The notes: generated by a model not told the origin, from the sequence alone. A DNA stretch of 64,000 bases from Alphaproteobacteria bacterium (GCA_965224275.1 CBDCYR010000005.1:386903-450902), one strand, 5' to 3'. Shown: positions 3,850 through 57,613, counted from the first letter of the stretch. Numbers and translations: made by a program.

Positions 3850-5243
3850 GGTTGTGTCTCGAAAGTGGTGGAAATTGGTTTTGGCGCCTCTCCGAGCGGG
3901 TTGAGTTTTGCGGCGGTCAGGCCGCGCGGTCAAGGGTTTCGTCGGCGATTAGCTGATCGAGGGTTTCCCATCCATCGACTTTGCGCATCTGGATTTGGCC
4001 GGAAGCGAGGAGCGCCCAGAGGAGCATCGGCACTGTTTCGGGACACGGCAGCACGGTCTGTGTTTTGATCCGGCGCTTGAACTCCTCGTTGAGACGCTCA
4101 ATGGCGTTGGTCGTTCGGGCTGATTTCCATTGGCTCTTGGACAGGCGCGTGAAGGTAAAGAGCTTGTCGCCCGCTTCTGCGAGGCTGTCCGCGACGGCCC
4201 TGCATTTCAGCCGCCACTTGCGGACAAACGCCTTGCGGCGGGTTTCCACCTCGGAGGCAGTGTCGGCATAGATCATATCGCGGTAATCTTCGCTCAGCTC
4301 GTCATGCATGTGTTTGGGAGCATGACCCAGAAGGTTGCGGTGCTTGTGCACGGTGCAGCGTTGAACGGGAAGGTCATCGCCCCAAAGCGCCGACAGAGCC
4401 GCCTCCAGTCCCGGCGCGCCATCGACGATGACAAACCCGGGCCGTTTCAGTCCACGCGCATCAAGGTCGTCGAGGAACTGGCGCCACGCCGCCTGGCTTT
4501 CTCCGCCCATATTCCCGATCGAAAGCAAGACCTTCTGGCCATCCCGGCGCACCCCTATAGCCGCGAGAACCGAGATGTTGGTGGCCTTGCGATCCAGTCG
4601 GGTCTTGATCACAGTGCCGTCAAGGATCAGCCGAACGATATCCTCATCCGCGAGGCCACGGCTGCACCAGGCGTCCCAATCGACCTTCACCTTGCGCCAC
4701 GCCCGGCTCACAACGTCCTTGCTCACAGCACCCCCGAAGAGCCCGAACAGCGCGCGTTTCACCCGCCGCGTGTTGGTTCCGGACAGATACACCGAAGCGA
4801 TCAGCGCCTCGGCCTTTCTGGTCAGCCGCTGGTAGCGCGGCAGCGCCCGCGAACGCCATTCCGACGCCCGACCGTCTTCCTCAACGATCCGTGCACGCGG
4901 CACGCTCACCCTCTCGGTCCCGAATGTCCCCGTCAGTTGCCGCTCCCGGTGCCCGTTCCGATACCCTTGCCGAAGCGCGTCCTCTCGACCGTATCGGCAG
5001 CGCCCGAGAAACTGCGCAAGTTCCTCCTCAAAAACGGCCTCGATCGTGGATCTGATGTTCTCCCGCAGCCGGTCCTCGAGCGGATCATAGCCGGCGTCAT
5101 TGGCCAGTAGCGAAAGCGCAGAAGTCTCGGTAGTGTTCTTCATGGCGTGATCTCCTTGGCGGTGCTAGCCGCCGGTTGGGTGGTTGTCTTGTCACCCGGA
5201 GATTACGCCATCCTCAAATTTCCACCACTTTCGAGACACAGCC
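3850..5243 (-). mobile_element. IS256-family insertion sequence, copy A (1394 bp), terminal IRs GG(T/C)TGTGTCTCGAAAGTGGTGGAAATT, 8-bp TSD GAGAGGGG
   Basis: Imperfect terminal inverted repeats at both ends. Identical flanking 8-mers GAGAGGGG at 3842-3849 and 5244-5251. Near-identical second copy at 53960-55353. Confidence 0.85.
3917..5143 (-). CDS. IS256-family (mutator-type) transposase, 408 aa
   Basis: Translation has the IS256 transposase architecture and DDE region. Differs from copy B by about 1 aa (S/C). Confidence 0.9.
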   Translation of the reverse strand: MKNTTETSALSLLANDAGYDPLEDRLRENIRSTIEAVFEEELAQFLGRCRYGREDALRQGYRNGHRERQLTGTFGTERVSVPRARIVEEDGRASEWRSRALPRYQRLTRKAEALIASVYLSGTNTRRVKRALFGLFGGAVSKDVVSRAWRKVKVDWDAWCSRGLADEDIVRLILDGTVIKTRLDRKATNISVLAAIGVRRDGQKVLLSIGNMGGESQAAWRQFLDDLDARGLKRPGFVIVDGAPGLEAALSALWGDDLPVQRCTVHKHRNLLGHAPKHMHDELSEDYRDMIYADTASEVETRRKAFVRKWRLKCRAVADSLAEAGDKLFTFTRLSKSQWKSARTTNAIERLNEEFKRRIKTQTVLPCPETVPMLLWALLASGQIQMRKVDGWETLDQLIADETLDRAA

Positions 5244-5281
5244 GAGAGGGGTAGGGTGAGGGGGTTTGTTTGTTCCTAGTA

Positions 5282-5827
5282 TCACTGATTCTCAAAAGCT
5301 CCAGCACCCACCCCCGCCAGCCGCTTGCGTAGCGTTGGCATCCAGCCGCCATTTTCGATGATCGTCAGCAATGCCGCATCGAGCGGTGGATAGTTGATCT
5401 CGCTGCCTCGGCTCACATTGCGAAACGTTCCGGTCCGAAAGTCGACGTCGAGTTCATCGCCGTCGGCCGCTTCATCGGCAACACCAGGACAGGCCGGCAG
5501 GATCGGCACCGCGCAGTTGATCGCGTTGCGAAAACTGCCGCGTGGGATCGATTCGACGACCAGGCCGAGCCCAAGGCCGGCGATTCCGATCAAGCCCTGA
5601 ATGTGCGGGTTGCCTTGCGCGAAGCGCCTGCCCGCAACAATGATGTCTCCCGGCGACACGTTCTTAGGAAAGTCGGGATCGAGACCGCACATGACGTGAT
5701 CGCGCAACACCTCCGGATCGGTTTCCCGCGCGATTGCAAAATGCAACGGCATGATGTCGCCGTCGATCGCGACATTGTCGCCGAAGTGCCAACAGCGGCC
5801 GCGATAGGTGAAGGTCACGGTTGCCAC
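5282..5827 (-). CDS. Aconitase-family small subunit (LeuD-like swivel domain; 3-isopropylmalate/dimethylmalate dehydratase small subunit-like)
   Basis: Motifs WHFGDNVAIDGDIMP and GxNFGxGSSRE-like core. Probable GTG start at ~5827, directly after the large-subunit stop (coupled). The longest ORF would start at 5878 but overlaps the large subunit by 47 bp. Confidence 0.6.
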   Translation of the reverse strand: MATVTFTYRGRCWHFGDNVAIDGDIMPLHFAIARETDPEVLRDHVMCGLDPDFPKNVSPGDIIVAGRRFAQGNPHIQGLIGIAGLGLGLVVESIPRGSFRNAINCAVPILPACPGVADEAADGDELDVDFRTGTFRNVSRGSEINYPPLDAALLTIIENGGWMPTLRKRLAGVGAGAFENQ

Positions 5828-11963: not shown

Positions 11964-12722
11964 CTACCCGCCGCCAACACTCTTGCCGCCGTCCACCGGC
12001 ACCACCGCCCCGGTGATCCACGCGGCAGCCGGCGACCCGAGAAACGCGACCATCTCGGCGACCTCGGAGGCTTCGCCGATCCGCCCAAGCAGATAGCCGC
12101 GACCGCGTCTTTTCACATAAGCGCCATAGGTCGCCGCCGTCAAACCAACGTGGTCGTGAAGGATTCGAGTCCGAACCAGGCCCGGGCTGACCGCGTTGAC
12201 CCTGACGCCGGCCGGTGCCAGTTCCACCGCCAGCGCCTTCGTGAACGCCTCGACGCCGCCTTTGGTTGCCGCGTAGATCGCCAGACCCGGCGATGGTCGA
12301 TGCGCCTGCGCTGACGATATGTTGACGATCGCACCCTTGACCCGGCGCAACGCCGGGATCGCGGCCAGACAAACGTTCATGGTGCCGACCAGATTGGTGC
12401 CAATCACCTGCTCGATCGTGGTTCGCCGGATCTCGCCGATCCGCTCCTCGCGCATGATGCCGGCGCAATTGACCACGACATCAACACGACCGAGGTCACC
12501 CACGATCGCCCGCACGGATCGCTTGACTTGCGCCTCATCGGTGACGTCGCAGGCCAGCATCGTCAACCGTTCGCCGCGACGGCTGCGAATATGACTCGTC
12601 GTTAGATCAACAATCGCAACCCGATAACCACGCGCCGCGAACGCCGAGGCGCAGGCACGCCCGATCCCCCCGCCACCGCCCGTAATGACCGCAACGCGAT
12701 CGGGCTTGCGCCCAGTTGCCAC
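11964..12722 (-). CDS. Short-chain dehydrogenase/reductase (SDR)
   Basis: TGGGGGIG Rossmann motif near the N-terminus; 252 aa. Confidence 0.8.
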   Translation of the reverse strand: MATGRKPDRVAVITGGGGGIGRACASAFAARGYRVAIVDLTTSHIRSRRGERLTMLACDVTDEAQVKRSVRAIVGDLGRVDVVVNCAGIMREERIGEIRRTTIEQVIGTNLVGTMNVCLAAIPALRRVKGAIVNISSAQAHRPSPGLAIYAATKGGVEAFTKALAVELAPAGVRVNAVSPGLVRTRILHDHVGLTAATYGAYVKRRGRGYLLGRIGEASEVAEMVAFLGSPAAAWITGAVVPVDGGKSVGGG

Positions 12723-14168
12723 CTACTTCTGATATGCCGCGCGGCGGTCGACCAGGCGCTTGGGCTTGCCCTCGCGTCCCCCCACATTGGCGATCTCGTC
12801 GAGACTGCCTTGCGCCACGATTTCGACGTCGACGCCGAGCCCGAGGTCACCCTTGAGCAACTCCGCCATCTTTTCCTTGAGGCCTTCGGCCGATCCGGCA
12901 TCGTTGCGGACCTCGATCTGCACCGTCATTTCCTCGCGCTTGACGCCGTTTTTCACCACGGCATCGGCGATGCAGATCCACTCACCGGTCGTGCGCTCAT
13001 CGCTTTGCACCGCGTTGAGGCAAGCCATCGGGTTGAGATTGACGCCGCGGATCTTGACCATGTCGTCCGAGCGGCCGAGGAAATGGTCCATGCGGCGAAA
13101 ATTGCTGCCGCATTCGCAGGTATCGGTGTGCAAAATGCGCCCGAGATCGCGCAGATTGAAGCGGATGATCGGCGGCATCGAGCGGTGGAACACCGTCACC
13201 ACCATGTTGCCGGTCTCACCATGCGGCACGGGTTCGCCGGTTTCGGTATCGACGATCTCGAAATACATACAGTCCTCCTGGAAGTGGAGGCCGTTCTTGA
13301 ATTGGCACTCGAAGGCGCCATCGCCCATCTCGTTAGTGCCGTAATTGTCATACACATTGCAACCCAGCGCCTCTTCCAGCTCGGCCCGCAACTTGCCCTC
13401 GGTGTCGGGGCCGAGAAACGCCAGCACGAACTTCGTGTTGAGCTCGCGGAAATCGCGGCCGAGTTCCTCGCGGCTCGCTTGCGCCAGGCGCAACATGTAT
13501 TCGGGAAACGAGCACCACAGATTGGTGCCGTAATCGAACGCGATTTCCATCTGTCGCCGGCTCGGCGTCACCACGCCGGTGCCCGTGGTCAGTGGCAAGA
13601 TGCCGAGATAATCGTGCACACCCTTGTAAACGCACCACCCGAGATTGCCGAGCGCCAGACTAACCGGAATCTGCATGACATCGCCGGGCCGGGCGCCCAA
13701 TACATAGAGCGTTCGCGCCGCCGTGAGCCCATTGAGTTCCCACTCCTGCGGCGTGTAAAGCGTTACCCGGGGCTTGCCCGTGGTGCCACCGCTGGTCTGC
13801 ATCTTAAAGGGCGTCGCTGCGAAGTCGGCCGGGCCGACATTGTGGAACTCGCCGAACGGCGGGGTCTCGAGTTGATCCTGTTTGACATCGTCGGAATTAT
13901 AGGTCGGGACCTTGTGGCTATCGTCGATGCTCTTGATGTCGTCGGGATTGAGACCGGCCGCCTGCCAGCGTTTGCGGTAGAAAGGGTTATCCCAGCCCAG
14001 CTTGACGCAGCGCAGGAAGCGTTCGTTTTGCAGCGCCCGTACACGCTCGGCCGGCCACTTATAAACGGTGTCGACGAACACGTCGGGCACCGGATAATCC
14101 TGGTGCAGCTGCGCCCAGTCTATCGAGTTGTGGTAGATCGGCAGCTTGCTCGCCGGAAACTCACTCAT
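12723..14168 (-). CDS. Phenylacetate-CoA ligase (PaaK)-family adenylate-forming enzyme, copy 1
   Basis: Motif TSGGTTGKPRV and PaaK-like C-terminal domain. Probable start at the second in-frame ATG (MSEFPASK, about 14168) with a purine-rich RBS. The ORF-track start is 14222. Confidence 0.7.
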   Translation of the reverse strand: MSEFPASKLPIYHNSIDWAQLHQDYPVPDVFVDTVYKWPAERVRALQNERFLRCVKLGWDNPFYRKRWQAAGLNPDDIKSIDDSHKVPTYNSDDVKQDQLETPPFGEFHNVGPADFAATPFKMQTSGGTTGKPRVTLYTPQEWELNGLTAARTLYVLGARPGDVMQIPVSLALGNLGWCVYKGVHDYLGILPLTTGTGVVTPSRRQMEIAFDYGTNLWCSFPEYMLRLAQASREELGRDFRELNTKFVLAFLGPDTEGKLRAELEEALGCNVYDNYGTNEMGDGAFECQFKNGLHFQEDCMYFEIVDTETGEPVPHGETGNMVVTVFHRSMPPIIRFNLRDLGRILHTDTCECGSNFRRMDHFLGRSDDMVKIRGVNLNPMACLNAVQSDERTTGEWICIADAVVKNGVKREEMTVQIEVRNDAGSAEGLKEKMAELLKGDLGLGVDVEIVAQGSLDEIANVGGREGKPKRLVDRRAAYQK

Positions 14169-16148: not shown

Positions 16149-18221
16149 ATGGCCTTTCGGATCGGTGTCGACGTCGGCGGCACATTCACCGATTTCCTGC
16201 TGCTCGATGGTGAGGGCACGGCAACGGTCTACAAGGTGCTATCGACACCCGATGATCCATCGCGAGCGGTGCTCGATGGCCTCGCGCGAATGGCCGATGA
16301 TGTGGGCCTCGACTTAGGCCAATTCATCGCCGGCATTGTCCTCATCGTCCACGGCACCACAGTCACGACGAACGCGGTGCTGACCGGCAAGACCTCGCCC
16401 ACCGGACTGCTCACGACGCGGGGCTTCCGCGACGCCCTGCAAATGCGGCGCGGCGTTCGCGAGGTGCAATACGACAACAAATATCCAGCCGCCGAACCGC
16501 TGGTCCCGCGCTGGTTGCGCCGCCCGGTGAGTGAGCGGGTCGACGCGCAAGGGGCGATCGTCCAGCCGCTTGACCTGGCTGACGTCGACGATGCGATCGT
16601 GCGGTTCAAAGGCGCCGGCATTGATGCGGTCGCGATCTGCTTCATGCACGGTTACGCCAATAGCAATCACGAACAGGCCGCCGCCGATCGTGTCGCCCAG
16701 CTCATGCCCCAGGCCTACCTCTCGGTATCGAGCCAGGTGCTGCCGCAGGTGCGTTTCTACGAACGGATCAGCACCACCGTCCTCAACGCCGCCGTCGGTC
16801 CCATCCTCAGCCGCTACCTCGCCAACCTCACCGCGCGGCTTGCCGATCAGGCCTTCGCGGGCGTGCTGCTCATTATGAAATCGAACGGCGGGGTCACCTC
16901 GCCCAAGGTTGCCTCCGATCTCGCCGCGAGCACCCTGCTGTCGGGTCCGGCCGCGGCGCCGGTCGCCGGCCTCGCCTATGCCACACCACATGAAACAGGT
17001 GATTTCATCACCATCGACATGGGCGGTACCAGTTTTGATGCTGCCCTGGTTAAAGATGGCACGCCGGCGATCACCACCGATAGCCGGGTCAACCGGCATG
17101 CGCTTAGCCTCGCCAGTATGGAGATCAACACCATCGGCGCTGGTGGCGGCTCGATCGCCTGGATCGATGATGGTGGTCTGTTGCGGATGGGACCCGACAG
17201 CGCCGGCGCCAGTCCCGGTCCTGTCTGCTACAGCCGCGGCGGGACCGCCCCGACCTGCAGTGACGCCGATCTCGTGCTCGGCTATCTCGATGCCGATTTC
17301 TTCGCCGGCGGGACCATCGCGCTCGATCACGCTGCCGCCGAGCGGGCAATCGCCGAACAGATCGCCAAGCCGCTCGAGATGACCACCCTCGACGCGGCCT
17401 ACGGCATGTATCACTTGATGAACGTCAATATGGCTTCGGCGATCCGCGAAATCTCCGTACAAAAAGGCTATGACCCGCGCGACTTTCTGCTGATCTGCGC
17501 CGGCGGCGCCGGGCCCCTTCACGCCGCCGCCATTGCCGCCGAGCTTGAGGTTCGGCACATCCTCATTCCCAAGGACTCGTCGATCTTCTGCGCCGCCGGG
17601 ATGTTGCACTCCGATCTCAAACACGATTTCGTTCGCAGCTACCACACCGAATTCGCAGCCTCAGCGATCGACACCGCCCGATTTGCGACCCTGATCGGCG
17701 AGATGCAAAACGCCGGCGATACAATCTTGGCGGCCGAGGGCGTCGCAGCGGCCGATCGCGACGCCGAATTTTCGCTCGACCTGCGCTATGTCGGCCAATA
17801 TCACGAAGTTAACGTCTCGGTTTCAGCGGCCCAGCTGGCCCCACCTGACTTCGAGGCGATCGCGACAGCTTTTCACGCCGCCCACGACCGGCTTTACGGT
17901 TATTCCCTGGCCGACGATGATCGCCAGGTGACCCTGGTAAACATTCGCATGACGGCTATCGGCAGAACCGAAAAGCCCGAACTTCGCGCTGACGCTGCGC
18001 GGGGCAGCGTCGATGCCGCCCGCAAGGGTCAACGCCAGGTCTTCCTTTCCTCGCAAATGGCGTTCTCTACGCTCGATGTCTACGACGGCGACGCTATGGG
18101 ATCCGGCCATGCGCTCAAGGGCCCCGCCATCATCGAACAACGCAACACCACCATTCTGGTGCCACCGGATCACCACCTGACGTGTGATGCGTTGGGCAGT
18201 TTTCTGTTGAGCGCGTCATGA
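16149..18221 (+). CDS. hyuA: Hydantoinase/oxoprolinase family A subunit (HyuA-like, ATP-dependent)
   Basis: 690 aa. N-terminus MAFRIGVDVGGTFTDF is the characteristic HyuA start. Stop overlaps the hyuB start (ATGA). Confidence 0.85.
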   Translation: MAFRIGVDVGGTFTDFLLLDGEGTATVYKVLSTPDDPSRAVLDGLARMADDVGLDLGQFIAGIVLIVHGTTVTTNAVLTGKTSPTGLLTTRGFRDALQMRRGVREVQYDNKYPAAEPLVPRWLRRPVSERVDAQGAIVQPLDLADVDDAIVRFKGAGIDAVAICFMHGYANSNHEQAAADRVAQLMPQAYLSVSSQVLPQVRFYERISTTVLNAAVGPILSRYLANLTARLADQAFAGVLLIMKSNGGVTSPKVASDLAASTLLSGPAAAPVAGLAYATPHETGDFITIDMGGTSFDAALVKDGTPAITTDSRVNRHALSLASMEINTIGAGGGSIAWIDDGGLLRMGPDSAGASPGPVCYSRGGTAPTCSDADLVLGYLDADFFAGGTIALDHAAAERAIAEQIAKPLEMTTLDAAYGMYHLMNVNMASAIREISVQKGYDPRDFLLICAGGAGPLHAAAIAAELEVRHILIPKDSSIFCAAGMLHSDLKHDFVRSYHTEFAASAIDTARFATLIGEMQNAGDTILAAEGVAAADRDAEFSLDLRYVGQYHEVNVSVSAAQLAPPDFEAIATAFHAAHDRLYGYSLADDDRQVTLVNIRMTAIGRTEKPELRADAARGSVDAARKGQRQVFLSSQMAFSTLDVYDGDAMGSGHALKGPAIIEQRNTTILVPPDHHLTCDALGSFLLSAS

Positions 18222-35145: not shown

Positions 35146-35452
35146 ACCGGCCTCGTCGAGGTTTGGTTAGGGACCGCGCGGGCGCTGCAGCGGCCCTGCT
35201 GCCGCGCAACTAAGACGCGATAACGTATACGGTTTCCGGCCGAAAACCATCATGTGGCCATCTGTTTTGCAGAGTTCGGCAGATCATTCCATGACTACCC
35301 GCCGACATCGGCGCGCTGGCGTGTGGGTTGATGGATGATGTGTAAAATGCCGGCATCATTAACCTAAGTTGGTGAGCGCCGAACATTATCGGTCAGGGTT
35401 GCGAGTGATCGGCGCACCATTCACACTGGGCGATCGAACCAGGAGCAAAGTT

Positions 35453-36553: not shown

Positions 36554-36573
36554 CGTTTCCAAGGAAGATCAAC

Positions 36574-37734: not shown

Positions 37735-38406
37735 GCGATCACGGAGGTATCGGTGTTTCTGAGAGATTATTGGTACCTCGCGGCCTGGGCGCGTGACGTT
37801 GGGCGCGATCCGCTCGGGCGCGTGATGCTCGGCGAACCCGTGGTCTTGTTCCGCAAGCAGGACGGCACGCCTGTCGCTTTGGAAGACCGTTGCATTCACC
37901 GCCGCCTGCCGTTGTCGATGGGCAAGATGATCGGCGACGAGTTGCAATGCCATTACCACGGCCTGGTGTTCGACTGTTCGGGCGCGTGCGTCAAAATCCC
38001 GGGTCAGGATCGGGTCCCCAAATCGGCCCGGGTCAGGAGCTACCCCGTCGTCGAGCGCAATCAATGCGTCTTTGTCTGGATGGGCGATCCCGCCCAACCG
38101 GACGAGTCAAGGATCCCCACCCACTTTAACCTGCTCGATGAAGAGGGCTGGACCTCGAGCCTGGTCTATCGCCCGGTACGTTGCCACTACGAACTGATCA
38201 ACGACAATCTTCTCGATCTGTCCCACCTTGCCACGGTGCACGCCTCGACCGTCGGCACCGGCCACGTTGCCGATTTCGCCGATGTCGAAACCGAGCACGA
38301 GGGTCATCACATCAAAGTTTCACGCTGGACGATGGACGTGCCGGCCGCGACCACCTATCAGCAGTTCGGCAATTACGAGAGCAATATCGACCGTTGGCAG
38401 GTCTCA

Positions 38407-39338
38407 GAGTCCGACTCGAAACTCTATGTTTGATAACAGTACCTTGCGAGCCGCCTTGTGAGGAGTCGGATGTTGGCGACAAGAATCCATGCCTGTGCGG
38501 AGGCGATTGATTTCTCCCAATCCTTGGCCAGTCGACGGCATCGGTTGAGCCAGGCGAAGGTCCTCTCGACGACCCATCGTCTGGGCAGGAGCTCGAAGCC
38601 CTGGGCGGTGTCTGAGCGCTTGATGATCTCGAGCTTCCAGCGGCCGATGTCCTCAAGGGCGCCCTCGAGTTTCGGTCCCGCGTAGGCGGCGTCGGCGAAG
38701 AGGTGACGCAGCCGGGGGAAGCGATGACGGATCGATTTGAGGACCTCGGGCGCGCCGTCACGGTCCTGGATATCGGCTGCGTGCACGATCAGGCCGACCA
38801 GCAGGCCGAGTGTATCGGTGACGATGTGACGCTTGCGGCCCTTGATCTTCTTGCCCGCGTCATAGCCCCGAACACCACCGCTTTCCGTGGTTTTCACGCT
38901 CTGGCTGTCGATCACCCCGGCGCTCGGGCCGGCCTCGCGTCCTTCCAGCTCCCGGGCCGCCATGACCAGGTGATGGTTGATGCTCTCCAGCAGGCCGTTG
39001 GAGCGCCAGTCGTAGAAATAGCGCTGGACCGTGGAAGGCGGAGGGAAGTCGTTCGGCAACATCGCCCACTGGCAGCCCGTCGAGGCCATGTACATGACCG
39101 CATCCATGACATGGCGCAGGTCCGTCGTCCTCGGCCGGCCGATCTTCTTGCGCGGCGGCATGAGCGGCGCGATCAACGCCCACTCTCGATCCGTCAGGTC
39201 GCTTGCGTAGCGCCCGCCACGGCGCTCATAATTCGGGCGAGTGATTTCGGTCCACATGTTGTGCCTCCTCGTTTGCTTTGACACAACCGAGTAAGCCACA
39301 ACCGACTGAAATCACTCAACTAGTTTCGGGTTGGCCTC
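38407..39338 (-). mobile_element. IS5-family insertion sequence copy 3, 932 bp, TSD TCA
   Basis: TCA at 38404-38406 and 39339-39341. One nucleotide difference from copies 1 and 2. Confidence 0.9.
38424..39299 (-). CDS. IS5-family transposase
   Basis: Identical protein to copies 1 and 2. Confidence 0.85.
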   Translation of the reverse strand: MAYSVVSKQTRRHNMWTEITRPNYERRGGRYASDLTDREWALIAPLMPPRKKIGRPRTTDLRHVMDAVMYMASTGCQWAMLPNDFPPPSTVQRYFYDWRSNGLLESINHHLVMAARELEGREAGPSAGVIDSQSVKTTESGGVRGYDAGKKIKGRKRHIVTDTLGLLVGLIVHAADIQDRDGAPEVLKSIRHRFPRLRHLFADAAYAGPKLEGALEDIGRWKLEIIKRSDTAQGFELLPRRWVVERTFAWLNRCRRLAKDWEKSIASAQAWILVANIRLLTRRLARYCYQT

Positions 39339-40055
39339 TCAGAATATTTCCCGCCTTCCTATTGCCGCATCAACAACGGCGCCGCGGCGGTCAATACCGG
39401 CGCGCGCGAGGGCAAGGGCGAAAAGCGCTGGGATTTCTGGGTCAGCCACGGCATCACGCCGGAGTCCGAAACCTCGACTCACTATTTCTGGGCCCTCGCC
39501 CATCGCACCTGGACCAACAACCAAGACGACATCGAGGAGTTCCACCGCCAGTGCCATCACGTCGTCGGCGAAGATCTTGCCGTGTTTGCGGCCCAGCAGG
39601 CATCTATCGACCTCGACCCCGGCGCGCCCACCCTCGATATCCGCTACGACGCCGGCCCCATGATGGCCCGCCGTATCATCAACGAACTGCTAGAGGCCGA
39701 GCGAACACCTCCTGCAAACCACGAGTAGCGGTTCTGCAGCCCTTTGGGTGTTCCGCTAACCCAACCGTCGAACCGCGCATGCGGTTGTGGCGCTCTTGGG
39801 TATTTTGATTAGAGGCGGAGGCGTCCGGCTAGTTCGGGCAGAACATCCCAGAAGTTCTGCCAACCCAACACCGGACATTTCTAAGCGCTCGTGGGTCGCA
39901 CACGAATCATCATCGACGGCCTGCTCCCGTGAGCCGGTCTTGATCATTCCCCTCCTGCGGGTAAAGGACGGTCGCGTCCATTCGAACCTCAGGAATAGAC
40001 CGGGGCCGAAGCTCCATCTTGATTCGAATGACACTCGTACTATATATTATTACGA

Positions 40056-42649: not shown

Positions 42650-44050
42650 GGACGTTCCAACAAGGCACACGAAGGCCGCTAATTAGCCAATACCGGTCGT
42701 GGCCGCATGAAGAAAAGTCAGCCCAGACGAGAGCGGGCCTACCACGGCCATAAGATGTTCATCGGCGCTGCGGATCTCGACCGCTCGATAATCGCTTGGC
42801 AGGCTGGGGGCGAAACGCAATGAAGAGTTTGCAGGACATCTTTGATGCTGTGGACGGCGCCCTGTTCGGCATCTAGGTGCCAAAGTGGTAGCTGTTAGAG
42901 ACCACTTAAAAGGGGAGCCGTCCGACATGAATGTTAGCAGAATTGGTCTAGATATCGCGAAGAACGTGTTTCAGGTTCACGGCGTCGATGAGGCGGGTGA
43001 AGTCGTCATCCGCAAGCAACTGAGGCGCAGCCAGGTGATGCCCTTCTTCGAGAAGCAGTCTTCGTGCCTGGTCGGCATTGAGGCCTGCGCCACGTCCCAC
43101 CACTGGTCGCGCGAGCTGCAAGCTTTGGGTCATGAGGTTCGGCTGATGCCGGCGGGCTATGTGAAGGCCTACGTGAAGCGCAACAAGAACGATGCGGCCG
43201 ATGCTGAGGCGATCTGCGAGGCAGTGACACGGCCGACGATGCGGTTCGTGGCAACCAAGACCAAGGAGCAGCAGAGCGTCTTGATGGTGCACAAGACGCG
43301 ACAGTTGCTGGTCCGTCAACGGACCATGCTGAGCAATGCGATGCGCGGCCACTTTGCTGAGTTTGGGATCACCGCGCGGGTCGGACGCCTGGGCTTGGGG
43401 AAGCTCCTAGCGATTGTTCAGGATCAAGATGACCAGCAGATCCCCGCCTTTGCTCGGCTGGCATTGATCGCTTTGGCAGACCACTACCAGACGGTACATG
43501 CGAAGATTGTCGCGCTCGAGCGCAGCCTGAATGCTTGGCATCGCTCGAATGAGACCAGCCGACGCTTGGCGGAGATTCCAGGCGTCGGCCCGCTCGTGGC
43601 CACGGCATTGACCGCGAGTGTGACGGATCCGACAGTCTTCTCTTCGGGGCGAAGTATGGCGGCCTGGATCGGATTGGTGCCGAGGGAGAACTCCACTGGC
43701 GGCAAACGCCGGCTCGGACCGATCTCCAAGCAGGGCAACCGCTATCTCCGATGGATGCTGGTGACAGGCGCTATGGCGGTGATCCGTTACGCCAAGAAAA
43801 CGGGCTTTAAGAAACGACCTTGGTTGGCCCGATTGGTCGAAAACCGCCCGATCAAGCTCGCGGCGGTGGCGCTGGCCAACAAGATCGCCCGCATCGCCTG
43901 GGTGATCATGGCGCGCGGTGAACGCTATAAGGAGCCGGCCCTGACGGCCGCATAAAGAAATCGGTGTAGGCCGGAGCCTACGCAACGAAATTGGGAAGGG
44001 CTGACGACGTCATGCAGCAACGGTCGATCCGGGGATTGGAAGAGCCCGCT
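42650..44050 (+). mobile_element. IS110-family insertion sequence (approximate extent; this family lacks classical IRs/TSDs so ends are not determinable by eye)
   Basis: Contains IS110-type transposase gene. Hairpin GTAGGCcggaGCCTAC just downstream of tnp stop. Confidence 0.45.
42927..43955 (+). CDS. IS110-family transposase (DEDD type)
   Basis: AAAGGGGAG RBS then ATG 42927 (MNVSRIGLDIAKNVFQVHGVD...). C-terminal IS116/IS110/IS902 domain (LVPRENSTGGKRRLGPISKQGNRYLR). Confidence 0.85.
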   Translation: MNVSRIGLDIAKNVFQVHGVDEAGEVVIRKQLRRSQVMPFFEKQSSCLVGIEACATSHHWSRELQALGHEVRLMPAGYVKAYVKRNKNDAADAEAICEAVTRPTMRFVATKTKEQQSVLMVHKTRQLLVRQRTMLSNAMRGHFAEFGITARVGRLGLGKLLAIVQDQDDQQIPAFARLALIALADHYQTVHAKIVALERSLNAWHRSNETSRRLAEIPGVGPLVATALTASVTDPTVFSSGRSMAAWIGLVPRENSTGGKRRLGPISKQGNRYLRWMLVTGAMAVIRYAKKTGFKKRPWLARLVENRPIKLAAVALANKIARIAWVIMARGERYKEPALTAA

Positions 44051-44313
44051 TGGGTCAACGCATCTCTAGAATGCGTATTTTTGATTTGGGACCCAATCTG
44101 CGGAGAGCATGAGGGCCAGCGGTCACACGCACCGCATCAACAGGCCGGACAGATGACCGCACCCGACCAACCCTGCATCGACATCAAGAAAACCTTGCCA
44201 ATAACGCGCCGTCCACAGATGACCCAAACAGCATTATCGAGCTGAGCTTTTTCAATTTTCGCAACGCTATCACCGCGGCATATTTCGCTGACGAAAAACT
44301 CCGCATCAAGCGT

Positions 44314-45670: not shown

Positions 45671-46858
45671 TCAAGGCGCCTTGGTCTGAGTTTCGGCCAT
45701 GGGGTCGTTAGCCCGCCGTCCAACAAGTTGACTCCATTCGTCGTAAAAGACACGCACGCTTTCGTCATCCTGAGTTGCGTGTCCTTCATGACGACCGAAA
45801 ATTCCGTACCGGGCTGCCCGCTCGCGGTTGGCTCGCGCGACGCACTCGACCGCAATTACGTCTTCGGGGACGTTACGTCCAAACGGCCCCCAAAACTCGT
45901 TGTGGTGCTCTATACGCATGGCGCGGTCTTGCGCGGATTCACCCTTTACGCCCAGTCCCCGCCACTCAACGAGTGTTTTCTCGGCGCTGAGCGCATTGGT
46001 CGTGTGAATCATCATCACGGTAGCGCGGCATACAAATACCGTATTCGGAAAGAGACCGACGACGCGGGTTTCGCCGGGATGTAGGCCAGGAAGGGTATTG
46101 TCGCGCTGGCCAGAACTGCCGATGTTTTGATAGCTCTGCCGCGTCGGTTCGAGCGAAGCATGACCATGAGGATAGAAATGCCAAGGCGTATCGAAGTACC
46201 CCTCTGTGCGGATTCCAACGCGACGGTTCAGATAGTGAAGATACTCATGGTACAGCTCCGTGCTCACCTCGTGCCATTGCTTCCAGTTAGCATCGACGAC
46301 TGCGCGATGCAGATGAAAAACCTCCAGTTCACCGGTTGCGAAAATGGAGGTCAGGCTCTCAAATGCATCACCTAAATAGTCGTCAAAAGAATTCGCCGAC
46401 GTATCCAAGTTGACGAACACTAAATCATGGCGGGTTTCCGCCCTAACTTCGCGTAAGCCCCGATCGGCCTTGCAGATCCCCGCTTCCTCGTATCCTTCTT
46501 CACGTGGAATCGAAATGCATTTGCCCGAGGTGTCATAAACCCAGTTGTGGAAAAGGCACGTCCATGACTTGGCATTGCCCGCAGCTTCTCGCAGCACCAG
46601 AGCAGAACGATGCGAGCAAGAGTTGATAAAGGCGCGGATTTGCCCATCATTGTCCCGGGCAACGATCAGTGGATACCCGGCGTACTCGAAGGTTCGGTAG
46701 TCGCAGGGAACCGGGATCTCGCTTTCGTGGCAGATGAATTTCCACGTCTTGCGAAAAACGAACTCCCGCTCATCGCGAAATATGTCGGGGTCTGTGTATA
46801 TTCTCGAGTCAACATAATCCCGTTCGTGCAGTGCAGTCTGGTGGGCCGAGCCTCCCAT
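45671..46858 (-). CDS. Rieske non-heme iron oxygenase alpha subunit (no adjacent beta subunit or reductase)
   Basis: CSHRS...CLFHNW Rieske motif. NWKQWHEVSTELYHEYLH catalytic motif. Confidence 0.8.
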   Translation of the reverse strand: MGGSAHQTALHERDYVDSRIYTDPDIFRDEREFVFRKTWKFICHESEIPVPCDYRTFEYAGYPLIVARDNDGQIRAFINSCSHRSALVLREAAGNAKSWTCLFHNWVYDTSGKCISIPREEGYEEAGICKADRGLREVRAETRHDLVFVNLDTSANSFDDYLGDAFESLTSIFATGELEVFHLHRAVVDANWKQWHEVSTELYHEYLHYLNRRVGIRTEGYFDTPWHFYPHGHASLEPTRQSYQNIGSSGQRDNTLPGLHPGETRVVGLFPNTVFVCRATVMMIHTTNALSAEKTLVEWRGLGVKGESAQDRAMRIEHHNEFWGPFGRNVPEDVIAVECVARANRERAARYGIFGRHEGHATQDDESVRVFYDEWSQLVGRRANDPMAETQTKAP

Positions 46859-46938: not shown

Positions 46939-47049
46939 GCGCTCCAACGGCCTGCTGGAGAGCATCAACCATCACCTGGTCATGGCGGCCCGGGAGCTGG
47001 AAGGACGCGAGGCCGGCCCGAGCGCCGGGGTGATCGACAGCCAGAGCGT
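46939..47049 (+). mobile_element. Internal fragment (~111 bp) of the IS5-family element (encodes SNGLLESINHHLVMAARELEGREAGPSAGVIDSQSV of the transposase)
   Basis: Exact match to an internal segment of the 932-bp IS. No ends or TSD, so it is a remnant. Confidence 0.7.
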
Positions 47050-47265
47050 CAATTTCTATTTGCCGCAGTCTGGTGGCAATGTCCGAGGTAGCTCCCCGTT
47101 GGTCGGTGCGGCCATGAGTCGGAGCTGTTAACGCGGCGCCGATGCGTTGTATGCGCTGACGCGGCCATGATACGCTCCTCTTAACAATAAAATATCGTGT
47201 CGGTTCGATTGCCCGCATTCATTCGAAGCGGTGATCCGACTTCAAGCGACCAAGGGGAGGACAAC

Positions 47266-50213: not shown

Positions 50214-51156
50214 GAGTCCGACTCGAAACTCTATGTTTGATAACAGTACCTTGCGAGCCGCCTTGTGAGGAGTCGGATGTTGGCGACAAGAATCCATGCC
50301 TGTGCGGAGGCGATTGATTTCTCCCAATCCTTGGCCAGTCGACGGCATCGGTTGAGCCAGGCGAAGGTCCTCTCGACGACCCATCGTCTGACCTTCACCT
50401 TGGCAGGAGCTCGAAGCCCTGGGCGGTGTCTGAGCGCTTGATGATCTCGAGCTTCCAGCGGCCGATGTCCTCAAGGGCGCCCTCGAGTTTCGGTCCCGCG
50501 TAGGCGGCGTCGGCGAAGAGGTGACGCAGCCGGGGGAAGCGATGACGGATCGATTTGAGGACCTCGGGCGCGCCGTCGCGGTCCTGGATATCGGCTGCGT
50601 GCACGATCAGGCCGACCAGCAGGCCGAGTGTATCGGTGACGATGTGACGCTTGCGGCCCTTGATCTTCTTGCCCGCGTCATAGCCCCGAACACCACCGCT
50701 TTCCGTGGTTTTCACGCTCTGGCTGTCGATCACCCCGGCGCTCGGGCCGGCCTCGCGTCCTTCCAGCTCCCGGGCCGCCATGACCAGGTGATGGTTGATG
50801 CTCTCCAGCAGGCCGTTGGAGCGCCAGTCGTAGAAATAGCGCTGGACCGTGGAAGGCGGAGGGAAGTCGTTCGGCAACATCGCCCACTGGCAGCCCGTCG
50901 AGGCCATGTACATGACCGCATCCATGACATGGCGCAGGTCCGTCGTCCTCGGCCGGCCGATCTTCTTGCGCGGCGGCATGAGCGGCGCGATCAACGCCCA
51001 CTCTCGATCCGTCAGGTCGCTTGCGTAGCGCCCGCCACGGCGCTCATAATTCGGGCGAGTGATTTCGGTCCACATGTTGTGCCTCCTCGTTTGCTTTGAC
51101 ACAACCGAGTAAGCCACAACCGACTGAAATCACTCAACTAGTTTCGGGTTGGCCTC
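50214..51156 (-). mobile_element. IS5-family insertion sequence copy 4 (943 bp: 932 bp plus an 11-bp insertion ACCTTCACCTT at ~50391-50401 that frameshifts the transposase), TSD TAA
   Basis: TAA at 50211-50213 and 51157-51159. Transposase ORF terminates prematurely (240 aa, 50395-51117). Confidence 0.85.
50395..51117 (-). pseudogene. IS5-family transposase, frameshifted by the 11-bp insertion
   Basis: Protein identical to other copies up to ...GFELLPR, then premature stop. Confidence 0.75.
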
Positions 51157-52362: not shown

Positions 52363-53959
52363 CTGTGCCGATATCTCCGGTGCTTCACGATGCTCGCGCA
52401 GGAAGCGCTGCCGAGCGTTCTTTTTTGGTCTTGGGCGTGTAAAAACGTTCGCCGGATTAGCGATGCGGTGAGGGTTAGCGGTGCTGTTCGGGCCTCGTCC
52501 CTTTTTTCGGTTTTAGCTTGTCGTAGGGGCGGATTAGGCTGTTTCACCGCCACGACTGGATCTCGCGAGGGCGTCGCGGCGGTAGCGGGCCCTTACACTA
52601 TGCCCGCATAGCTGCCATCAGGGGTCCGGCGCCGAGAACGTTCATGACTCGCGTCAGATTGTAAGCGAGTACGTGCAGCGCCATTTCGGTTCTGACCCGC
52701 GGCAGCGTCTTCACCAGGAAGTGGGTGGCACCCATTCGGGCTTTGATGGTGCCGAAGGGGTGTTCGACCGTTTCGCGCCGCTGGCGCATCTTTTCCGGAT
52801 GCGCGTCGAGCCGGTGCTGGACCTCTTCCAGAACGTGCTCATGCTCCCAGCGGGTAATTCGGCGCTCTTTGGCGGTGGTGCACTGAGCCTTAATGGCGCA
52901 GTTCTGGCAGACATTGGTCCAGTAGCGACGTAGGGACAGCCCGTGCTCCTCTCTGGTGAAGCGGTAGACCAAGCGCTCGCCGGCTGGACAGACGTACACG
53001 TCCTCATCCTTCACATAGCGGAAGTCCTGCTTGCCGAACTTCCCTTTGGCTTTGATGCCCGAGGTTAGCGGTTTGGGGAGCGTGACTGTGATGCCGGCCT
53101 GATCACATGCCAGGATCTGATTGCTACTGAAGTAGCCGCGATCGGCGACCACCTCGAGTTTATCGACGTTCAGAGCGGCCTTGGTCTGCTCCGCCATGGG
53201 AGAGAGTTGCGCTCTGTCATTGCCAACGTTGGTCACCTTGTGTGTGACGATCAGGTGGTTCGACGTATCGACCGCGGCCTGCACGTTATAGCCAACCACA
53301 CCGGAACCGCGACCGCTGGTAGCCATGGAGCGAGCGTCGGGATCGGTCAAGGAGATCTGATGATCGGGTGTCGCGCGCATACGGGCGTCGAGGGCCGTAA
53401 GCCGTTGCATCTCCAGATGAAGACGCGCGATCTTCTCTTTCAGTCGGGTTACTTTCATCGCAAGCGCTTCCGACGGCTCCTGGCGGTCGGCGCTGTCGAG
53501 CTGATGGAGATAGCGCGACACGCTCTCTTCGATCTGCGCCTTGCGCCGATCCATCTTGGCGCGGGTGAAGTTCCGGTCGCGGTTGTTGACCGCTTTGAAC
53601 TTGCTACCGTCAATCGCAACGCTGGCCGTTGTCAGTAGACCGATCCTCCGGCAAAGCTCGACGAACCGGGCACAGACTTTGCCGATGGCAGCGCCGTTGT
53701 CCTTGCGGAAGTCAGCGATCGTCTTGTGATCCGGCACCAGGCGGCCGGTCAGCCACATGACCTCCACATTGCGCCCGGCTTCGCGTTCGAGACGCCGGCT
53801 CGATTGAACCCGATTAAGATAACCGTAGATGTACAGCTTCAACAGAACCGATGGGTGATAGGACGGACGGCCCGTGGCCGCTGGATCGATACCGCCAAAA
53901 CCAAGCCCACCCAGATCCAGTTCCTCGACAAAGACATCGATCACCCGAACCGGGTTGCC

Positions 53960-55353
53960 GGCTGTGTCTCGAAAGTGGTGGAAATTTGAGGATGGCGTAA
54001 TCTCCGGGTGACAAGACAACCACCCAACCGGCGGCTAGCACCGCCAAGGAGATCACGCCATGAAGAACACTACCGAGACTTCCGCGCTTTCGCTACTGGC
54101 CAATGACGCCGGCTATGATCCGCTCGAGGACCGGCTGCGGGAGAACATCAGATCCACGATCGAGGCCGTTTTTGAGGAGGAACTTGCGCAGTTTCTCGGG
54201 CGCTGCCGATACGGTCGAGAGGACGCGCTTCGGCAAGGGTATCGGAACGGGCACCGGGAGCGGCAACTGACGGGGACATTCGGGACCGAGAGGGTGAGCG
54301 TGCCGCGTGCACGGATCGTTGAGGAAGACGGTCGGGCGTCGGAATGGCGTTCGCGGGCGCTGCCGCGCTACCAGCGGCTGACCAGAAAGGCCGAGGCGCT
54401 GATCGCTTCGGTGTATCTGTCCGGAACCAACACGCGGCGGGTGAAACGCGCGCTGTTCGGGCTCTTCGGGGGTGCTGTGAGCAAGGACGTTGTGAGCCGG
54501 GCGTGGCGCAAGGTGAAGGTCGATTGGGACGCCTGGTGCAGCCGTGGCCTCGCGGATGAGGATATCGTTCGGCTGATCCTTGACGGCACTGTGATCAAGA
54601 CCCGACTGGATCGCAAGGCCACCAACATCTCGGTTCTCGCGGCTATAGGGGTGCGCCGGGATGGCCAGAAGGTCTTGCTTTCGATCGGGAATATGGGCGG
54701 AGAAAGCCAGGCGGCGTGGCGCCAGTTCCTCGACGACCTTGATGCGCGTGGACTGAAACGGCCCGGGTTTGTCATCGTCGATGGCGCGCCGGGACTGGAG
54801 GCGGCTCTGTCGGCGCTTTGGGGCGATGACCTTCCCGTTCAACGCTGCACCGTGCACAAGCACCGCAACCTTCTGGGTCATGCTCCCAAACACATGCATG
54901 ACGAGCTGAGCGAAGATTACCGCGATATGATCTATGCCGACACTGCCTCCGAGGTGGAAACCCGCCGCAAGGCGTTTGTCCGCAAGTGGCGGCTGAAATG
55001 CAGGGCCGTCGCGGACAGCCTCGCAGAAGCGGGCGACAAGCTCTTTACCTTCACGCGCCTGTCCAAGAGCCAATGGAAATCAGCCCGAACGACCAACGCC
55101 ATTGAGCGTCTCAACGAGGAGTTCAAGCGCCGGATCAAAACACAGACCGTGCTGCCGTGTCCCGAAACAGTGCCGATGCTCCTCTGGGCGCTCCTCGCTT
55201 GCGGCCAAATCCAGATGCGCAAAGTCGATGGATGGGAAACCCTCGATCAGCTAATCGCCGACGAAACCCTTGACCGCGCGGCCTGACCGCCGCAAAACTC
55301 AACCCGCTCGGAGAGGCGCCAAAACCAATTTCCACCACTTTCGAGACACAACC
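53960..55353 (+). mobile_element. IS256-family insertion sequence copy B (1394 bp), 9-bp TSD CGGGTTGCC, nested inside the IS1182 transposase gene
   Basis: Same IRs as copy A. CGGGTTGCC at 53951-53959 and 55354-55362. Confidence 0.85.
54060..55286 (+). CDS. IS256-family transposase (408 aa)
   Basis: 1-aa difference from copy A. Confidence 0.9.
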   Translation: MKNTTETSALSLLANDAGYDPLEDRLRENIRSTIEAVFEEELAQFLGRCRYGREDALRQGYRNGHRERQLTGTFGTERVSVPRARIVEEDGRASEWRSRALPRYQRLTRKAEALIASVYLSGTNTRRVKRALFGLFGGAVSKDVVSRAWRKVKVDWDAWCSRGLADEDIVRLILDGTVIKTRLDRKATNISVLAAIGVRRDGQKVLLSIGNMGGESQAAWRQFLDDLDARGLKRPGFVIVDGAPGLEAALSALWGDDLPVQRCTVHKHRNLLGHAPKHMHDELSEDYRDMIYADTASEVETRRKAFVRKWRLKCRAVADSLAEAGDKLFTFTRLSKSQWKSARTTNAIERLNEEFKRRIKTQTVLPCPETVPMLLWALLACGQIQMRKVDGWETLDQLIADETLDRAA

Positions 55354-56681
55354 CGGGTTGCCTTCGTCGATCCAGTCCTCAAGACACTCGGGGAACAGCG
55401 TCGACTGACCCCGGTCCACACCCGCAACGAAACGCTTCATCAAATACTCCCGCCAAACGACGGGAGAATCATAACAACACCAACGTTTTTACACAGGCTG
55501 GGTCATGACAAGCCATTGCCGTTCGAACGCATTCCCGCGCCGATAGCTGCCCCCGGCGCGAAGTGAGCACTCAAGGCCGTAGACATGGCCGATGATTCAG
55601 CGGTCGTCATAGGCGCAGGAATTGCGGGAATATTGGCCGCGTCCGCGCTTGCTCGGCACTTTCGCCGCGTCACGATTGTCGAGCGTGATCGCCTTCGAGA
55701 CGTGCCGGAAGTGCGTAAGGGAACCCCCCAGTCGGCCCACGTTCACATACTTCTCGATCATGGTCTTACGGTTTCCGAAAGTCTTCTGCCGGGCGCGCGA
55801 AAAGCGCTCCTCCAAGCCGGCGCCATCACCATACGCGCAGGCTGGGATGAACGTGTGTTCGATGGCGAGCAGTGGCTTCCCCAGCTCGATTGTGGGATTA
55901 CGAATTTATCCCAGAGCCGGCCAGTATTTGAGAACGCACTGCGCGGCTGCCTGCAGCAATTCGCCAATGTAGACGTCCGGGACGGGACAAGTCTCACCGC
56001 GTTCAGATTGAGCGATAAAGGCTGTGTCACAGGCGTTGACGTGACTGGCCCATCCGGAAAGGCCGAGCATCTACCAGCAACCCTAATTGTTGACGCCTCG
56101 GGAAGAGCCAGCAAATCGGTGCGCTGGCTGGAACAATTAGGGTTTGGTCCGCTGGCAGCGGATGAGATCTGGATCGGTTTGAGTTATGCGAGTGGAATTT
56201 TCAGGCGGTCTCAACAATGGTGCGACAATCCGACGGCTTGGCGGGTTCAGTGCAAGGAGACCATGCGCGGCGGTGTCGTTCGCCCGATCGAGGGAAACCG
56301 CTGGATATTCACCGCCGCCGGCTATTTCGACGATATTCCTCCGATAGACTTGCAGGATATGCTTCGTTTTCTTCGATCCTTGCCGGACCCTCGGCTATAC
56401 GAGTGTATACGCGACGGAGAACTGGAGGGTCGGCTACGGGTTTACCGTACGCCGACAGTCCTCGTGCGCCGATTCGACCGATTGGCCGCGTTGCCAGGCG
56501 GATACATTCCCGTTGGCGACGTTGTGGCCCACCTGAATCCCCTCGGCGGCCAGGGCATGTCCGTTGCCGCGGTCCACGCCGACATATTGCGTAAACATTT
56601 GGAAATGCGAGCCGAAAAACGAACCGGTCCGGAGGAATTTTCTCAGGCGTTCGTCGAGGAGGCTGTTGCCGTAAGCGCTAA

Positions 56682-57613
56682 GAGGCCAACCCGAAACTAG
56701 TTGAGTGATTTCAGTCGGTTGTGGCTTACTCGGTTGTGTCAAAGCAAACGAGGAGGCACAACATGTGAACCGAAATCACTCGCCCGAATTATGAGCGCCG
56801 TGGCGGGCGCTACGCAAGCGACCTGACGGATCGAGAGTGGGCGTTGATCGCGCCGCTCATGCCGCCGCGCAAGAAGATCGGCCGGCCGAGGACGACGGAC
56901 CTGCGCCATGTCATGGATGCGGTCATGTACATGGCCTCGACGGGCTGCCAGTGGGCGATGTTGCCGAACGACTTCCCTCCGCCTTCCACGGTCCAGCGCT
57001 ATTTCTACGACTGGCGCTCCAACGGCCTGCTGGAGAGCATCAACCATCACCTGGTCATGGCGGCCCGGGAGCTGGAAGGACGCGAGGCCGGCCCGAGCGC
57101 CGGGGTGATCGACAGCCAGAGCGTGAAAACCACGGAAAGCGGTGGTGTTCGGGGCTATGACGCGGGCAAGAAGATCAAGGGCCGCAAGCGTCACATCGTC
57201 ACCGATACACTCGGCCTGCTGGTCGGCCTGATCGTGCACGCAGCCGATATCCAGGACCGCGACGGCGCGCCCGAGGTCCTCAAATCGATCCGTCATCGCT
57301 TCCCCCGGCTGCGTCACCTCTTCGCCGACGCCGCCTACGCGGGACCGAAACTCGAGGGCGCCCTTGAGGTCATCGGCCGCTGGAAGCTCGAGATCATCAA
57401 GCGCTCAGACACCGCCCAGGGCTTCGAGCTCCTGCCCAGACGATGGGTCGTCGAGAGGACCTTCGCCTGGCTCAACCGATGCCGTCGACTGGCCAAGGAT
57501 TGGGAGAAATCAATCGCCTCCGCACAGGCATGGATTCTTGTCGCCAACATCCGACTCCTCACAAGGCGGCTCGCAAGGTACTGTTATCAAACATAGAGTT
57601 TCGAGTCGGACTC
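56682..57613 (+). mobile_element. IS5-family insertion sequence copy 5, 932 bp, TSD TAA; transposase carries TGG->TGA nonsense change at the MW(TEI) codon plus one missense (D->V)
   Basis: TAA at 56679-56681 and 57614-57616. ATGTGAACC at 56763 versus ATGTGGACC in the other copies. Confidence 0.85.
56721..57596 (+). pseudogene. IS5-family transposase with premature stop near the N-terminus (downstream Met ORF 56844-57596 remains)
   Basis: See mobile_element entry. Confidence 0.7.

Follow-up and report, generated by a model that had tools for sequence, protein, structure and literature searches.

What does it mean when a neighbourhood of catabolic genes is crowded with near-identical insertion sequences (ISs): a mobile island, a local burst of transposition, or one glimpse of a process that runs through the whole genome? 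This question is raised by a 64,000-nucleotide stretch of alphaproteobacterial DNA (GCA_965224275.1, CBDCYR010000005.1:386903-450902; hereafter the window), in which IS DNA of four families makes up 10.5 kb of a 53.8-kb span (19.6%). The window is a chromosomal neighbourhood of genes for the catabolism of aromatic and lignin-derived compounds, and its host is an uncultured, Hyphomicrobiales-like, soil-type alphaproteobacterium with a genome of about 10 Mb that is known from metagenomes only. We conclude, with a probability of about 0.88, that the window samples a genome-wide IS expansion driven mainly by a new IS1031-type element of the IS5 family.

A new IS1031-type element is present in five copies

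Repeats were located by repeat finding, and their exact ends were set by motif search and alignment. Five copies of one IS5-type element, each with its own target-site duplication (TSD), were found in the window:

25567-26498, minus strand: copy A, 932 bp, TSD TAA, intact transposase gene at 25584-26417 (277 amino acids)
29472-30403, minus strand: copy B, 932 bp, TSD TTA, identical to A
38407-39338, minus strand: copy C, 932 bp, TSD TCA, 1 nt different from A
50214-51156, minus strand: copy D, 943 bp, TSD TAA, with an 11-bp insertion at 50391-50401
56682-57613, plus strand, inverted relative to A-D: copy E, 932 bp, TSD TTA (TAA on the plus strand), 2 nt different

The first-pass annotation of this DNA had described five full-length, nearly identical 932-bp copies that inserted independently, each with its own 3-bp TSD. 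The five copies lie where it placed them, and the duplications (TAA, TTA, TCA, TAA and TTA, all as C-TNA-G) support independent insertion; the description fails for D, which is 943 bp long and frameshifted, and for E, which has a nonsense codon.

The element starts with GAGTCCGACTCGAAACT and finishes with AGTTTCGGGTTGGCCTC (GAGTCC...GGCCTC), and its 17-bp imperfect inverted repeats (IRs), GAGTCCGACTCGAAACT and GAGGCCAACCCGAAACT, agree at 13 of 17 positions. The target is C-TNA-G for all five window copies, with the central TNA duplicated. A single uninterrupted open reading frame (ORF) of 277-291 amino acids encodes the transposase; its 277-residue form matches DUF4096 (PF13340) and DDE_Tnp_1 (PF01609, E = 2.6e-39) in Pfam, and scores 265.6 bits against a curated cut-off of 110 for NCBIfam model NF033580. 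Members of the IS1031 group of the IS5 family are about 0.85-0.95 kb long and have short imperfect terminal IRs beginning with GAG. A single ORF and a 3-nt target are likewise traits of that group (PMC2516522). Judged by its anatomy, namely the single ORF, the 3-bp TNA and the GAG ends, the 932-bp unit probably belongs to the IS1031 group, and it resembles both IS1031 of acetic acid bacteria and ISLxx6 of Leifsonia (PMC2516522) in its length of about 0.9 kb, its one DDE ORF, its GAG-start IRs and its 3-bp TNA. Unlike these likenesses in anatomy, identity to the annotated relatives is low (76% at the nucleotide and 75% at the amino acid level for the nearest), and a new IS name would be warranted. 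A near-identity search of PLSDB plasmids with the IS5-type and the IS256-type units (see below for the latter) returned only relatives at 76-79%. The nearest annotated relatives of all four ISs in the window, with PLSDB among the sources, are from Hyphomicrobiales or Rhodobacterales plasmids and only 63-79% identical, indicating that these are new ISs in known families.

Mechanistically, the IS5-type transposase would bind the terminal repeats and make a staggered cut that gives rise to the TNA duplication. Because the element starts with G and ends with C, each insertion would recreate CTNAG at its own junctions, which would explain tandem copies. Head-to-tail tandem copies with a 3-bp TNA between them do occur at two loci elsewhere in the population (L096, 1920-3786; L098, 957-2851).

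Three of the five insertions are absent from sibling genomes

Exact-protein look-up retrieved sibling genomes, namely contigs of ENA long-read metagenomes with 99.7-100% identity to the window. The main ones are a 10.02-Mb contig (L003, ERZ26694896:ctg118121), a 1.28-Mb contig (L001, ERZ25069191) and a 350-kb contig (L010, ERZ25071132), accompanied by several short contigs. The look-ups rested on the 277-residue ORF and DctQ; those with the 291-residue ORF, DctM, a 395-residue Rieske protein and TetR gave no match, owing to start-codon choice or single-residue differences.

In L001, sites A, B and C are empty and retain a single TAA, TTA and TCA, respectively, with flanks 99.9-100% identical to the window, and removal of the three copies from the window yields the sibling sequence to the base. 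Precise empty sites of this kind had been named beforehand as the check on recent insertion. Site C is empty, and the 346-residue gene that it lies in is intact, in L001, L002, L010 and L011. The interval from 10343 to 39337 of the window has a counterpart in the 10-Mb contig that lacks 2819 bp, compared with 2805 bp for three copies with their TSDs. To account for the empty sites by loss, three precise excisions would have to have happened independently in several lineages. Gain of three copies by a single lineage is far likelier, which makes A, B and C recent insertions. The IS5-type element has thus been active very recently, and it is probably still active now. The lengths of the repeats (932-1394 bp), their identity of 99.8-100%, their exact TSDs and the empty sites of the siblings together exclude chance.

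Copies D and E, both IS256-type copies (X and Y) and the IS110- and IS1182-type elements described below have the same junctions in every sibling that spans their sites, and these siblings come from independent assemblies of several samples; for example, the site of IS256-X is filled in L005 and L007, and that of copy E in L003, L004, L009 and L011, with an intact transposase. These insertions therefore predate the split of the lineages. Recent activity had been claimed for all four families. The claim stands for the IS5-type element, whose copies A, B and C are polymorphic, but not for the IS256, IS110 and IS1182 insertions at these sites, which are shared and older.

The transposase is intact in copies A, B and C. 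In copy D, the 11-bp insertion shifts the reading frame just before the RRWVVERTFAWL motif with the catalytic glutamate, and in copy E codon 2 of the 277-residue ORF is changed from Trp to stop. Both lesions are specific to the window lineage, as the D copies of siblings are 932 bp long and intact and their E copies are intact as well. A, B and C entered the window lineage after its split from near-identical siblings, and the older D and E were meanwhile inactivated there, by frameshift and nonsense mutation, respectively. New copies beside dead ones would point to birth-and-death turnover rather than to a single burst.

Could the repeats have been placed or duplicated by the assembler, for instance through metagenome mis-joins? 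Local noise or chimerism does exist among the siblings (553 bp duplicated in L009, 78 bp of flank duplicated in L002 and a flank in L010 that does not match). Against this, every copy has exact TSDs of family-typical length at a consensus target, excision of A, B and C in silico restores the sibling sequence exactly, and the junctions of D, E, X, Y, IS110 and IS1182 recur identically in independent assemblies of different samples. We consider an assembly artefact very improbable.

The irregular sibling loci are described here in their own right. At L002 2299-3326, which corresponds to site B (29469-29471), an IS5-type copy occupies the same TTA in the opposite orientation. About 37 bp are missing from its far end, and a second, 78-bp copy of the right flank lies ahead of that end. 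The contig, of 5x coverage, is from another sample, and the arrangement is either an independent hit on a hot spot followed by rearrangement, or a misassembly. In L010 from 16985 onwards (window 55353/55354), the DNA that follows IS256-Y on the right bears no relation to the window, encodes a large serine recombinase and another IS110-type protein and lacks the matching TSD, reflecting either an IS256-mediated rearrangement or a chimeric join in this 7x contig. The extra 553 bp of L009, a contig of 9x coverage, repeat the 5' region of the IS110-type element locally and were treated as assembly noise. L003 carries at 12163-13322 (window position about 60127) a 1.16-kb IS630-type element (DDE_3) with a TA duplication, and the window has no such element there. 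Several IS families are thus on the move in the population, IS630 being the fifth.

Near-identity of the copies is not a clock

Copies at one and the same site differ between siblings, at element positions 97, 244 and 259 for the IS5 type and 153 and 1271 for the IS256 type. Variant 244A of the IS5-type element occurs in copy E of the window and L004 and in copy D of L009 and L010, and the IS256 variants at 153 and 1271 change places between X and Y from contig to contig. Such mosaics suggest gene conversion between IS copies, or errors in low-coverage consensus sequences. They mean that near-identity alone is no clock and that presence/absence polymorphism is decisive. Recent bursts had been argued from near-identity and intact TSDs; the recency of A, B and C survives by way of the empty sites, and the use of identity as a clean measure of age does not.

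The mosaics also bear on the idea that old insertions have been held identical by gene conversion (concerted evolution), to which the same-site variants, including the swaps at 153 and 1271, and the fixation of D, E, X and Y among the siblings examined lend some weight. It is nevertheless unlikely as the explanation of the locus: A, B and C are present or absent among haplotypes that differ by less than 0.3% elsewhere, copies with 100% identity occur by the dozen in unrelated contexts, and gene conversion could account for the identity of the older copies but not for new sites.

The expansion is genome-wide

In the collection, 210 blocks are indexed with the exact 277-residue transposase. Four contigs of 237-311 kb, on which ten further loci were inspected, showed two or three IS5-type copies each, in unrelated gene contexts, copy numbers on these other contigs being lower bounds. 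Among 13 further copies, eleven or twelve are 99.9-100% identical to A, ten of these at 100%; matching TNA duplications were found for 12 of the 13, and the flanks are mostly C-TNA-G. At L100 1917-2854, an IS5-type copy has unequal flanking triplets, TTA and TGA, for which point mutation, sequencing error or recombination between copies are possible causes. The extended C-TNA-G preference and the tandem copies of this element are thereby documented from 18 insertions. The IS256-type transposase was found in 50 blocks and the IS110-type recombinase on 12 contigs; together with the IS1182 type, these elements are multi-copy in the population, and older and shared at the window sites. The 210 blocks and the copies in unrelated contexts indicate that the expansion is genome-wide and not peculiar to this region. 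The picture of a region set apart by its IS saturation is accordingly given up, several copies being present per contig of about 300 kb.

Among the collections searched, the lineage was seen only in ENA long-read samples. The exact IS-end pattern had no match in species-representative genomes, nor had the IS1182-end and IS5-end patterns in JGI (Joint Genome Institute) metagenomes.

Several points weigh against a genome-wide expansion led by the IS5-type element. The sibling assemblies are low-coverage long-read assemblies (2-21x), in which single-nucleotide differences between copies may be errors. The junctions of A, B and C rest on one assembly, with its exact TSDs and the matching empty sites, and sites A and B on the 10-Mb and 350-kb contigs were judged by length differences. 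The 350-kb contig differs from the window by 2238 bp, a length that simply counting absent copies does not explain. The mode of transposition (cut-and-paste or copy-out) is presumed from family membership.

An inverted IS256 pair and a nested IS1182-type element

The part of the locus that could be mistaken for a mobile unit is bounded by two IS256-type copies, one of them inside an IS1182-type element:

3850-5243, minus strand: IS256-type copy X, 1394 bp, transposase gene 3917-5143 (408 amino acids), 8-bp TSD GAGAGGGG at 3842-3849 and 5244-5251
53960-55353, plus strand: IS256-type copy Y, 1394 bp, transposase gene 54060-55286, nested in the IS1182-type element
53951-53959 and 55354-55362: 9-bp TSD of copy Y, GGCAACCCG (CGGGTTGCC on the plus strand)
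52431-55498, minus strand: IS1182-type element, about 1665 bp without the nested IS256, 13-bp IRs GTGTAAAAACGTT, flanks TTGGTC and TGGGTC
52598-53959, resuming beyond the nested IS256, minus strand: IS1182 transposase gene, interrupted at codon 26 of 480

X and Y are mutually inverted. The first-pass annotation had indicated a difference of about 2 nt and a separate TSD for each, and both hold, the difference being 2 nt and the TSDs 8 and 9 bp long, respectively. The transposase matches Transposase_mut (PF00872, E = 1.7e-72) and NF033543 (272.8 bits against 150), and this Mutator-type transposase, the length of 1394 bp, the IRs of about 26 bp and the TSDs of 8-9 bp are those of the IS256 family; the nearest annotated relative is 79% identical at the nucleotide level. 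The IS1182-type transposase combines DUF772 (PF05598) with DDE_Tnp_1_6 (PF13751), scores 436 bits against 270 for NF033551 and has its nearest annotated relative at 74% amino acid identity; these domains, a length of about 1.66 kb and 13-bp IRs are the likeness to the IS1182 family. The landing of IS256-Y in the IS1182 transposase gene killed that gene. With one IS1182 and one IS110 element, the count of four families is upheld, as the transposases pass the Pfam and NCBIfam curated cut-offs.

The IS256 pair brackets 48.7 kb and might have moved the enclosed cargo as one unit, either a mobile catabolic island or a composite transposon. In keeping with this, two near-identical inverted copies flank catabolic genes, the GC content in the right-hand part of the window, beyond about 39 kb, is 0.55-0.59 as against about 0.62 before, and synteny with the nearest species-level genome extends over only about 7.5 kb. 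But no duplication is common to the outer flanks, and X and Y are each bounded by a separate matching TSD (of 8 and 9 bp), from which it follows that the pair is not a composite transposon. Moreover, one copy sits inside another IS, the catabolic genes continue outside both copies, and neither a tRNA nor an integrase or transfer gene occurs in the window. Transport as a unit is thus very improbable.

The same observations bear on the term 'catabolic island' that had been given to the locus. ARAGORN found no tRNA in the window, Rfam at gathering thresholds found nothing in it, and no integrase or conjugation/transfer domains are among its annotated genes. On the sibling 10-Mb contig it lies at about 4.74-4.81 Mb, about mid-way, and the GC shift is modest. 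A genomic island or an integrative element is not shown by its boundaries, its transfer genes or its composition, and 'catabolic gene neighbourhood' fits better. The closest species-level genome is an uncultured alphaproteobacterial metagenome-assembled genome (MAG), whose CoA-transferase is 75% identical in amino acids; the syntenic block is confined to window positions 22-29.5 kb and has no IS in the MAG.

An IS1111-type element with guide-like segments at its right end

The fourth family is represented by a single IS110-family element:

42841-44226, plus strand: IS110-family element, conserved core of 1386 bp (alignment of nine copies)
42927-43955, plus strand: recombinase gene, 342 amino acids, DEDD_Tnp_IS110 and Transposase_20, NF033542 with 323.8 bits against 140
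42848-42860 and 44206-44218: sub-terminal inverted repeats (STIRs) CTGTGGACGGCGC, 13 bp
44047-44057: guide-like segment 1, CGCTTGGGTCA, 11 nt, reverse complement of TGACCCAAGCG (right half of the target)
44077-44085: guide-like segment 2, ATTTTTGAT, 9 nt, the same as the left half of the target

The left end has 86 nt and the right end 271 nt (43956-44226). A short left end, a long right end and sub-terminal IRs of 7-17 bp are the anatomy of the IS1111 group (PMC11208160), and by its recombinase domains and its end anatomy the element is of the IS1111 type. The nearest annotated relative of the recombinase is only 63% identical in amino acids.

AGGnAAyTTTTG-ATG is common to five different left flanks, and ACCCA(A) opens the right flanks, giving the consensus AGGnAAyTTTTG-ATG-ACCCAA over five loci and ATTTTTGATGACCCAAGCG as the candidate target sequence. 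No unoccupied target (TTTTGATGACCCA) was found in about 0.5 Mb of this organism's DNA. The two guide-like segments flank a hairpin, and both matches occurred together in none of 2000 shuffles. The right-end layout is consistent with the target-binding loop of a bridge RNA. This putative RNA has a fold z-score of -1.87 and no Rfam match, no donor loop was found, and the copies are identical, so that there is no covariation.

Overall, the element is like the IS1111 group of bridge-RNA-guided DEDD recombinases in its domains, its ends, its 13-bp STIRs, its long conserved target and its repeated adjacency to the end of a mobile element. IS4321 and IS5075, which belong to this group, target the terminal IRs of Tn21-family transposons. 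In contrast, the partner of the window element is an IS1182-type IS and not a Tn3-family transposon.

The IS110- and IS1182-type elements may be a coupled pair

At two to four independent loci (L109, L111/L112, L114 and L115, at about position 3290-3310 of the 5029-nt loci) the right end of the IS110-type element directly abuts an IS1182-type copy, with the junction ...CCACAG ATGACCCA GCC TGTGTAAAAACGTT. The window IS1182 (55495-55510) is preceded by the same ATGACCCAGCC without an adjoining IS110. IS1182-type copies are followed by GCCCAA GACCCA, with GACCAA in the window. The immediate flanks of the window IS1182 are accordingly GACCCA and GACCAA (5 of 6 positions match), and five other loci have GACCCA on both sides; a TSD and terminal direct repeats fit these flanks equally. 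A relative on a Methylorubrum populi plasmid (L117), 71% identical, has direct GACCCTG repeats as flanks. Pairs of loci with the same left flank (L108/L109 and the window/L115) share no right flank beyond GACCCA; chimerism is possible in L109 (1x) and in L115, a short-read scaffold.

The simplest reading suggested by these data is that the IS1182 lineage inserts at GACCCW and that each IS110 right junction offers such a site, the reverse order also being possible. We know of no description of a sequence-specific target for the IS1182 family. A further step, tentative and somewhat short of even odds, would couple the two elements: the GACCCA beside IS1182 coincides with TGACCCAA, the right half of the target specified by the putative RNA, and each insertion would create, or be, a landing site for the other. 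Coupling would explain why the two abut directly at two to four independent loci, one of them on a circular contig of 161 kb. If true, it would amount to an IS1182-family DDE transposase with a strict GACCCW target that is conserved across genera.

The circular contig in question (L114, ERZ25069191:ctg584000_7x_c, 160,819 bp, marked circular) carries the IS110 and IS1182 pair and is possibly a plasmid of the same organism and a route for IS spread. In Bradyrhizobium sp. CB82, an IS110 gene lies beside a relative of the IS1182 element; its recombinase is only 29% identical and in the opposite orientation, and this case gave no support.

Small templated patches in the window

Two small insertions in and beside a Rieske oxygenase gene are copies of nearby or IS-derived sequence:

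46940-47048 (to 46939-47052), about 109-114 bp: copy of the IS5-type interior, element positions about 487-600
46835-46842: 8-bp insertion AGTCTGGT in the 5' end of a Rieske oxygenase gene, a frameshift specific to the window

The larger patch had been taken for a 111-bp internal remnant of the IS5-type element. Three siblings read ...AACATAG GATGGGGTCGCATAAAGCTA TCAATTT... in this intergenic region between the Rieske and DctP genes, and in the window the patch replaces the 20 bp GATGGGGTCGCATAAAGCTA, with 1-nt microhomology at each junction. It is thus a templated patch that the siblings lack, and not a decayed copy. The 8-bp insertion, about 100 bp away, forms with its flanks an exact 12-nt copy of 47065-47076, a source 230 bp distant, and the 11-bp insertion of copy D (50391-50401) forms with its flanks an exact 13-nt match to the interior of IS256 (chance 11-mer matches expected in the window, 0.03). 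All three small insertions are window-specific, are exact copies of sequence elsewhere and show 1-2 nt of junction microhomology. They look like either template-switch or filler-DNA repair, or library or assembly artefacts.

Genes hit by the insertions

At least three insertions had been thought to cut cargo genes. Two genes are clearly broken. Three VanA-like Rieske oxygenase genes lie in tandem, and copy C splits the third of them (37753-38406 / 39342-39728; 346 amino acids when rejoined); copy E splits a gene for an FAD (flavin adenine dinucleotide)-dependent monooxygenase (55585-56681 / 57617-57839; 439 amino acids when rejoined). Copy B takes only the last two codons of an alpha/beta-hydrolase gene (28599-29471 / 30407-30415), and IS256-Y hits an IS gene, that of the IS1182 transposase, near its start at codon 26. 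The remaining insertions are intergenic: copy A lies 28 bp past a glyoxalase-family gene and about 50 bp ahead of an enoyl-CoA hydratase gene, copy D lies 12 bp past the DctM stop codon, and IS256-X lies in hairpin-like sequence. Intergenic insertions inside operons may have polar effects, and the identical repeats could drive deletions, inversions and gene conversion.

Some features of the surroundings were recorded along the way. The surroundings of IS256-X (3825-3849 and 5244-5270) are G/C-rich and hairpin-like (CCCTCTCCCCCTTGTGGGAGAGGGG...), possibly a repetitive extragenic palindromic (REP)-like element or a terminator. Within a core of 185 nt (repeat family D7), the three VanA-like paralogues (35369-39728) share about 75% identity. 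A hydantoinase A gene has a 12-bp in-frame indel at 17756-17767 and a 9-bp indel lies near 60011 (60011-60019), both polymorphic among sibling contigs.

Implications

IS expansions are known from Shigella, Bordetella pertussis and Amoebophilus asiaticus (PMC3196728), and the present case is like them in its many identical copies of few IS types, its gene disruptions, its nesting and its IS-mediated rearrangements. Unlike those host-restricted bacteria, the host here is a free-living environmental organism with a large genome, and the activity is seen as insertion polymorphism among co-occurring haplotypes. The phenomenon itself is well documented and ordinary biology, and knowledge of these IS families is unchanged. 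What the locus adds is an ongoing IS expansion documented in a metagenome-only bacterium by filled and empty sites that co-occurring haplotypes define to the base. The locus further provides a natural data set on the target choice of an IS1031-type element (CTNAG, 18 independent insertions) and a natural example of an IS1111-type right end, with five different occupied targets against which to set its guide-like segments. For the organism, it shows the fast erosion and rewiring of catabolic gene clusters, in which two oxygenase genes are split, operons are interrupted and repeats are primed for deletions and inversions.

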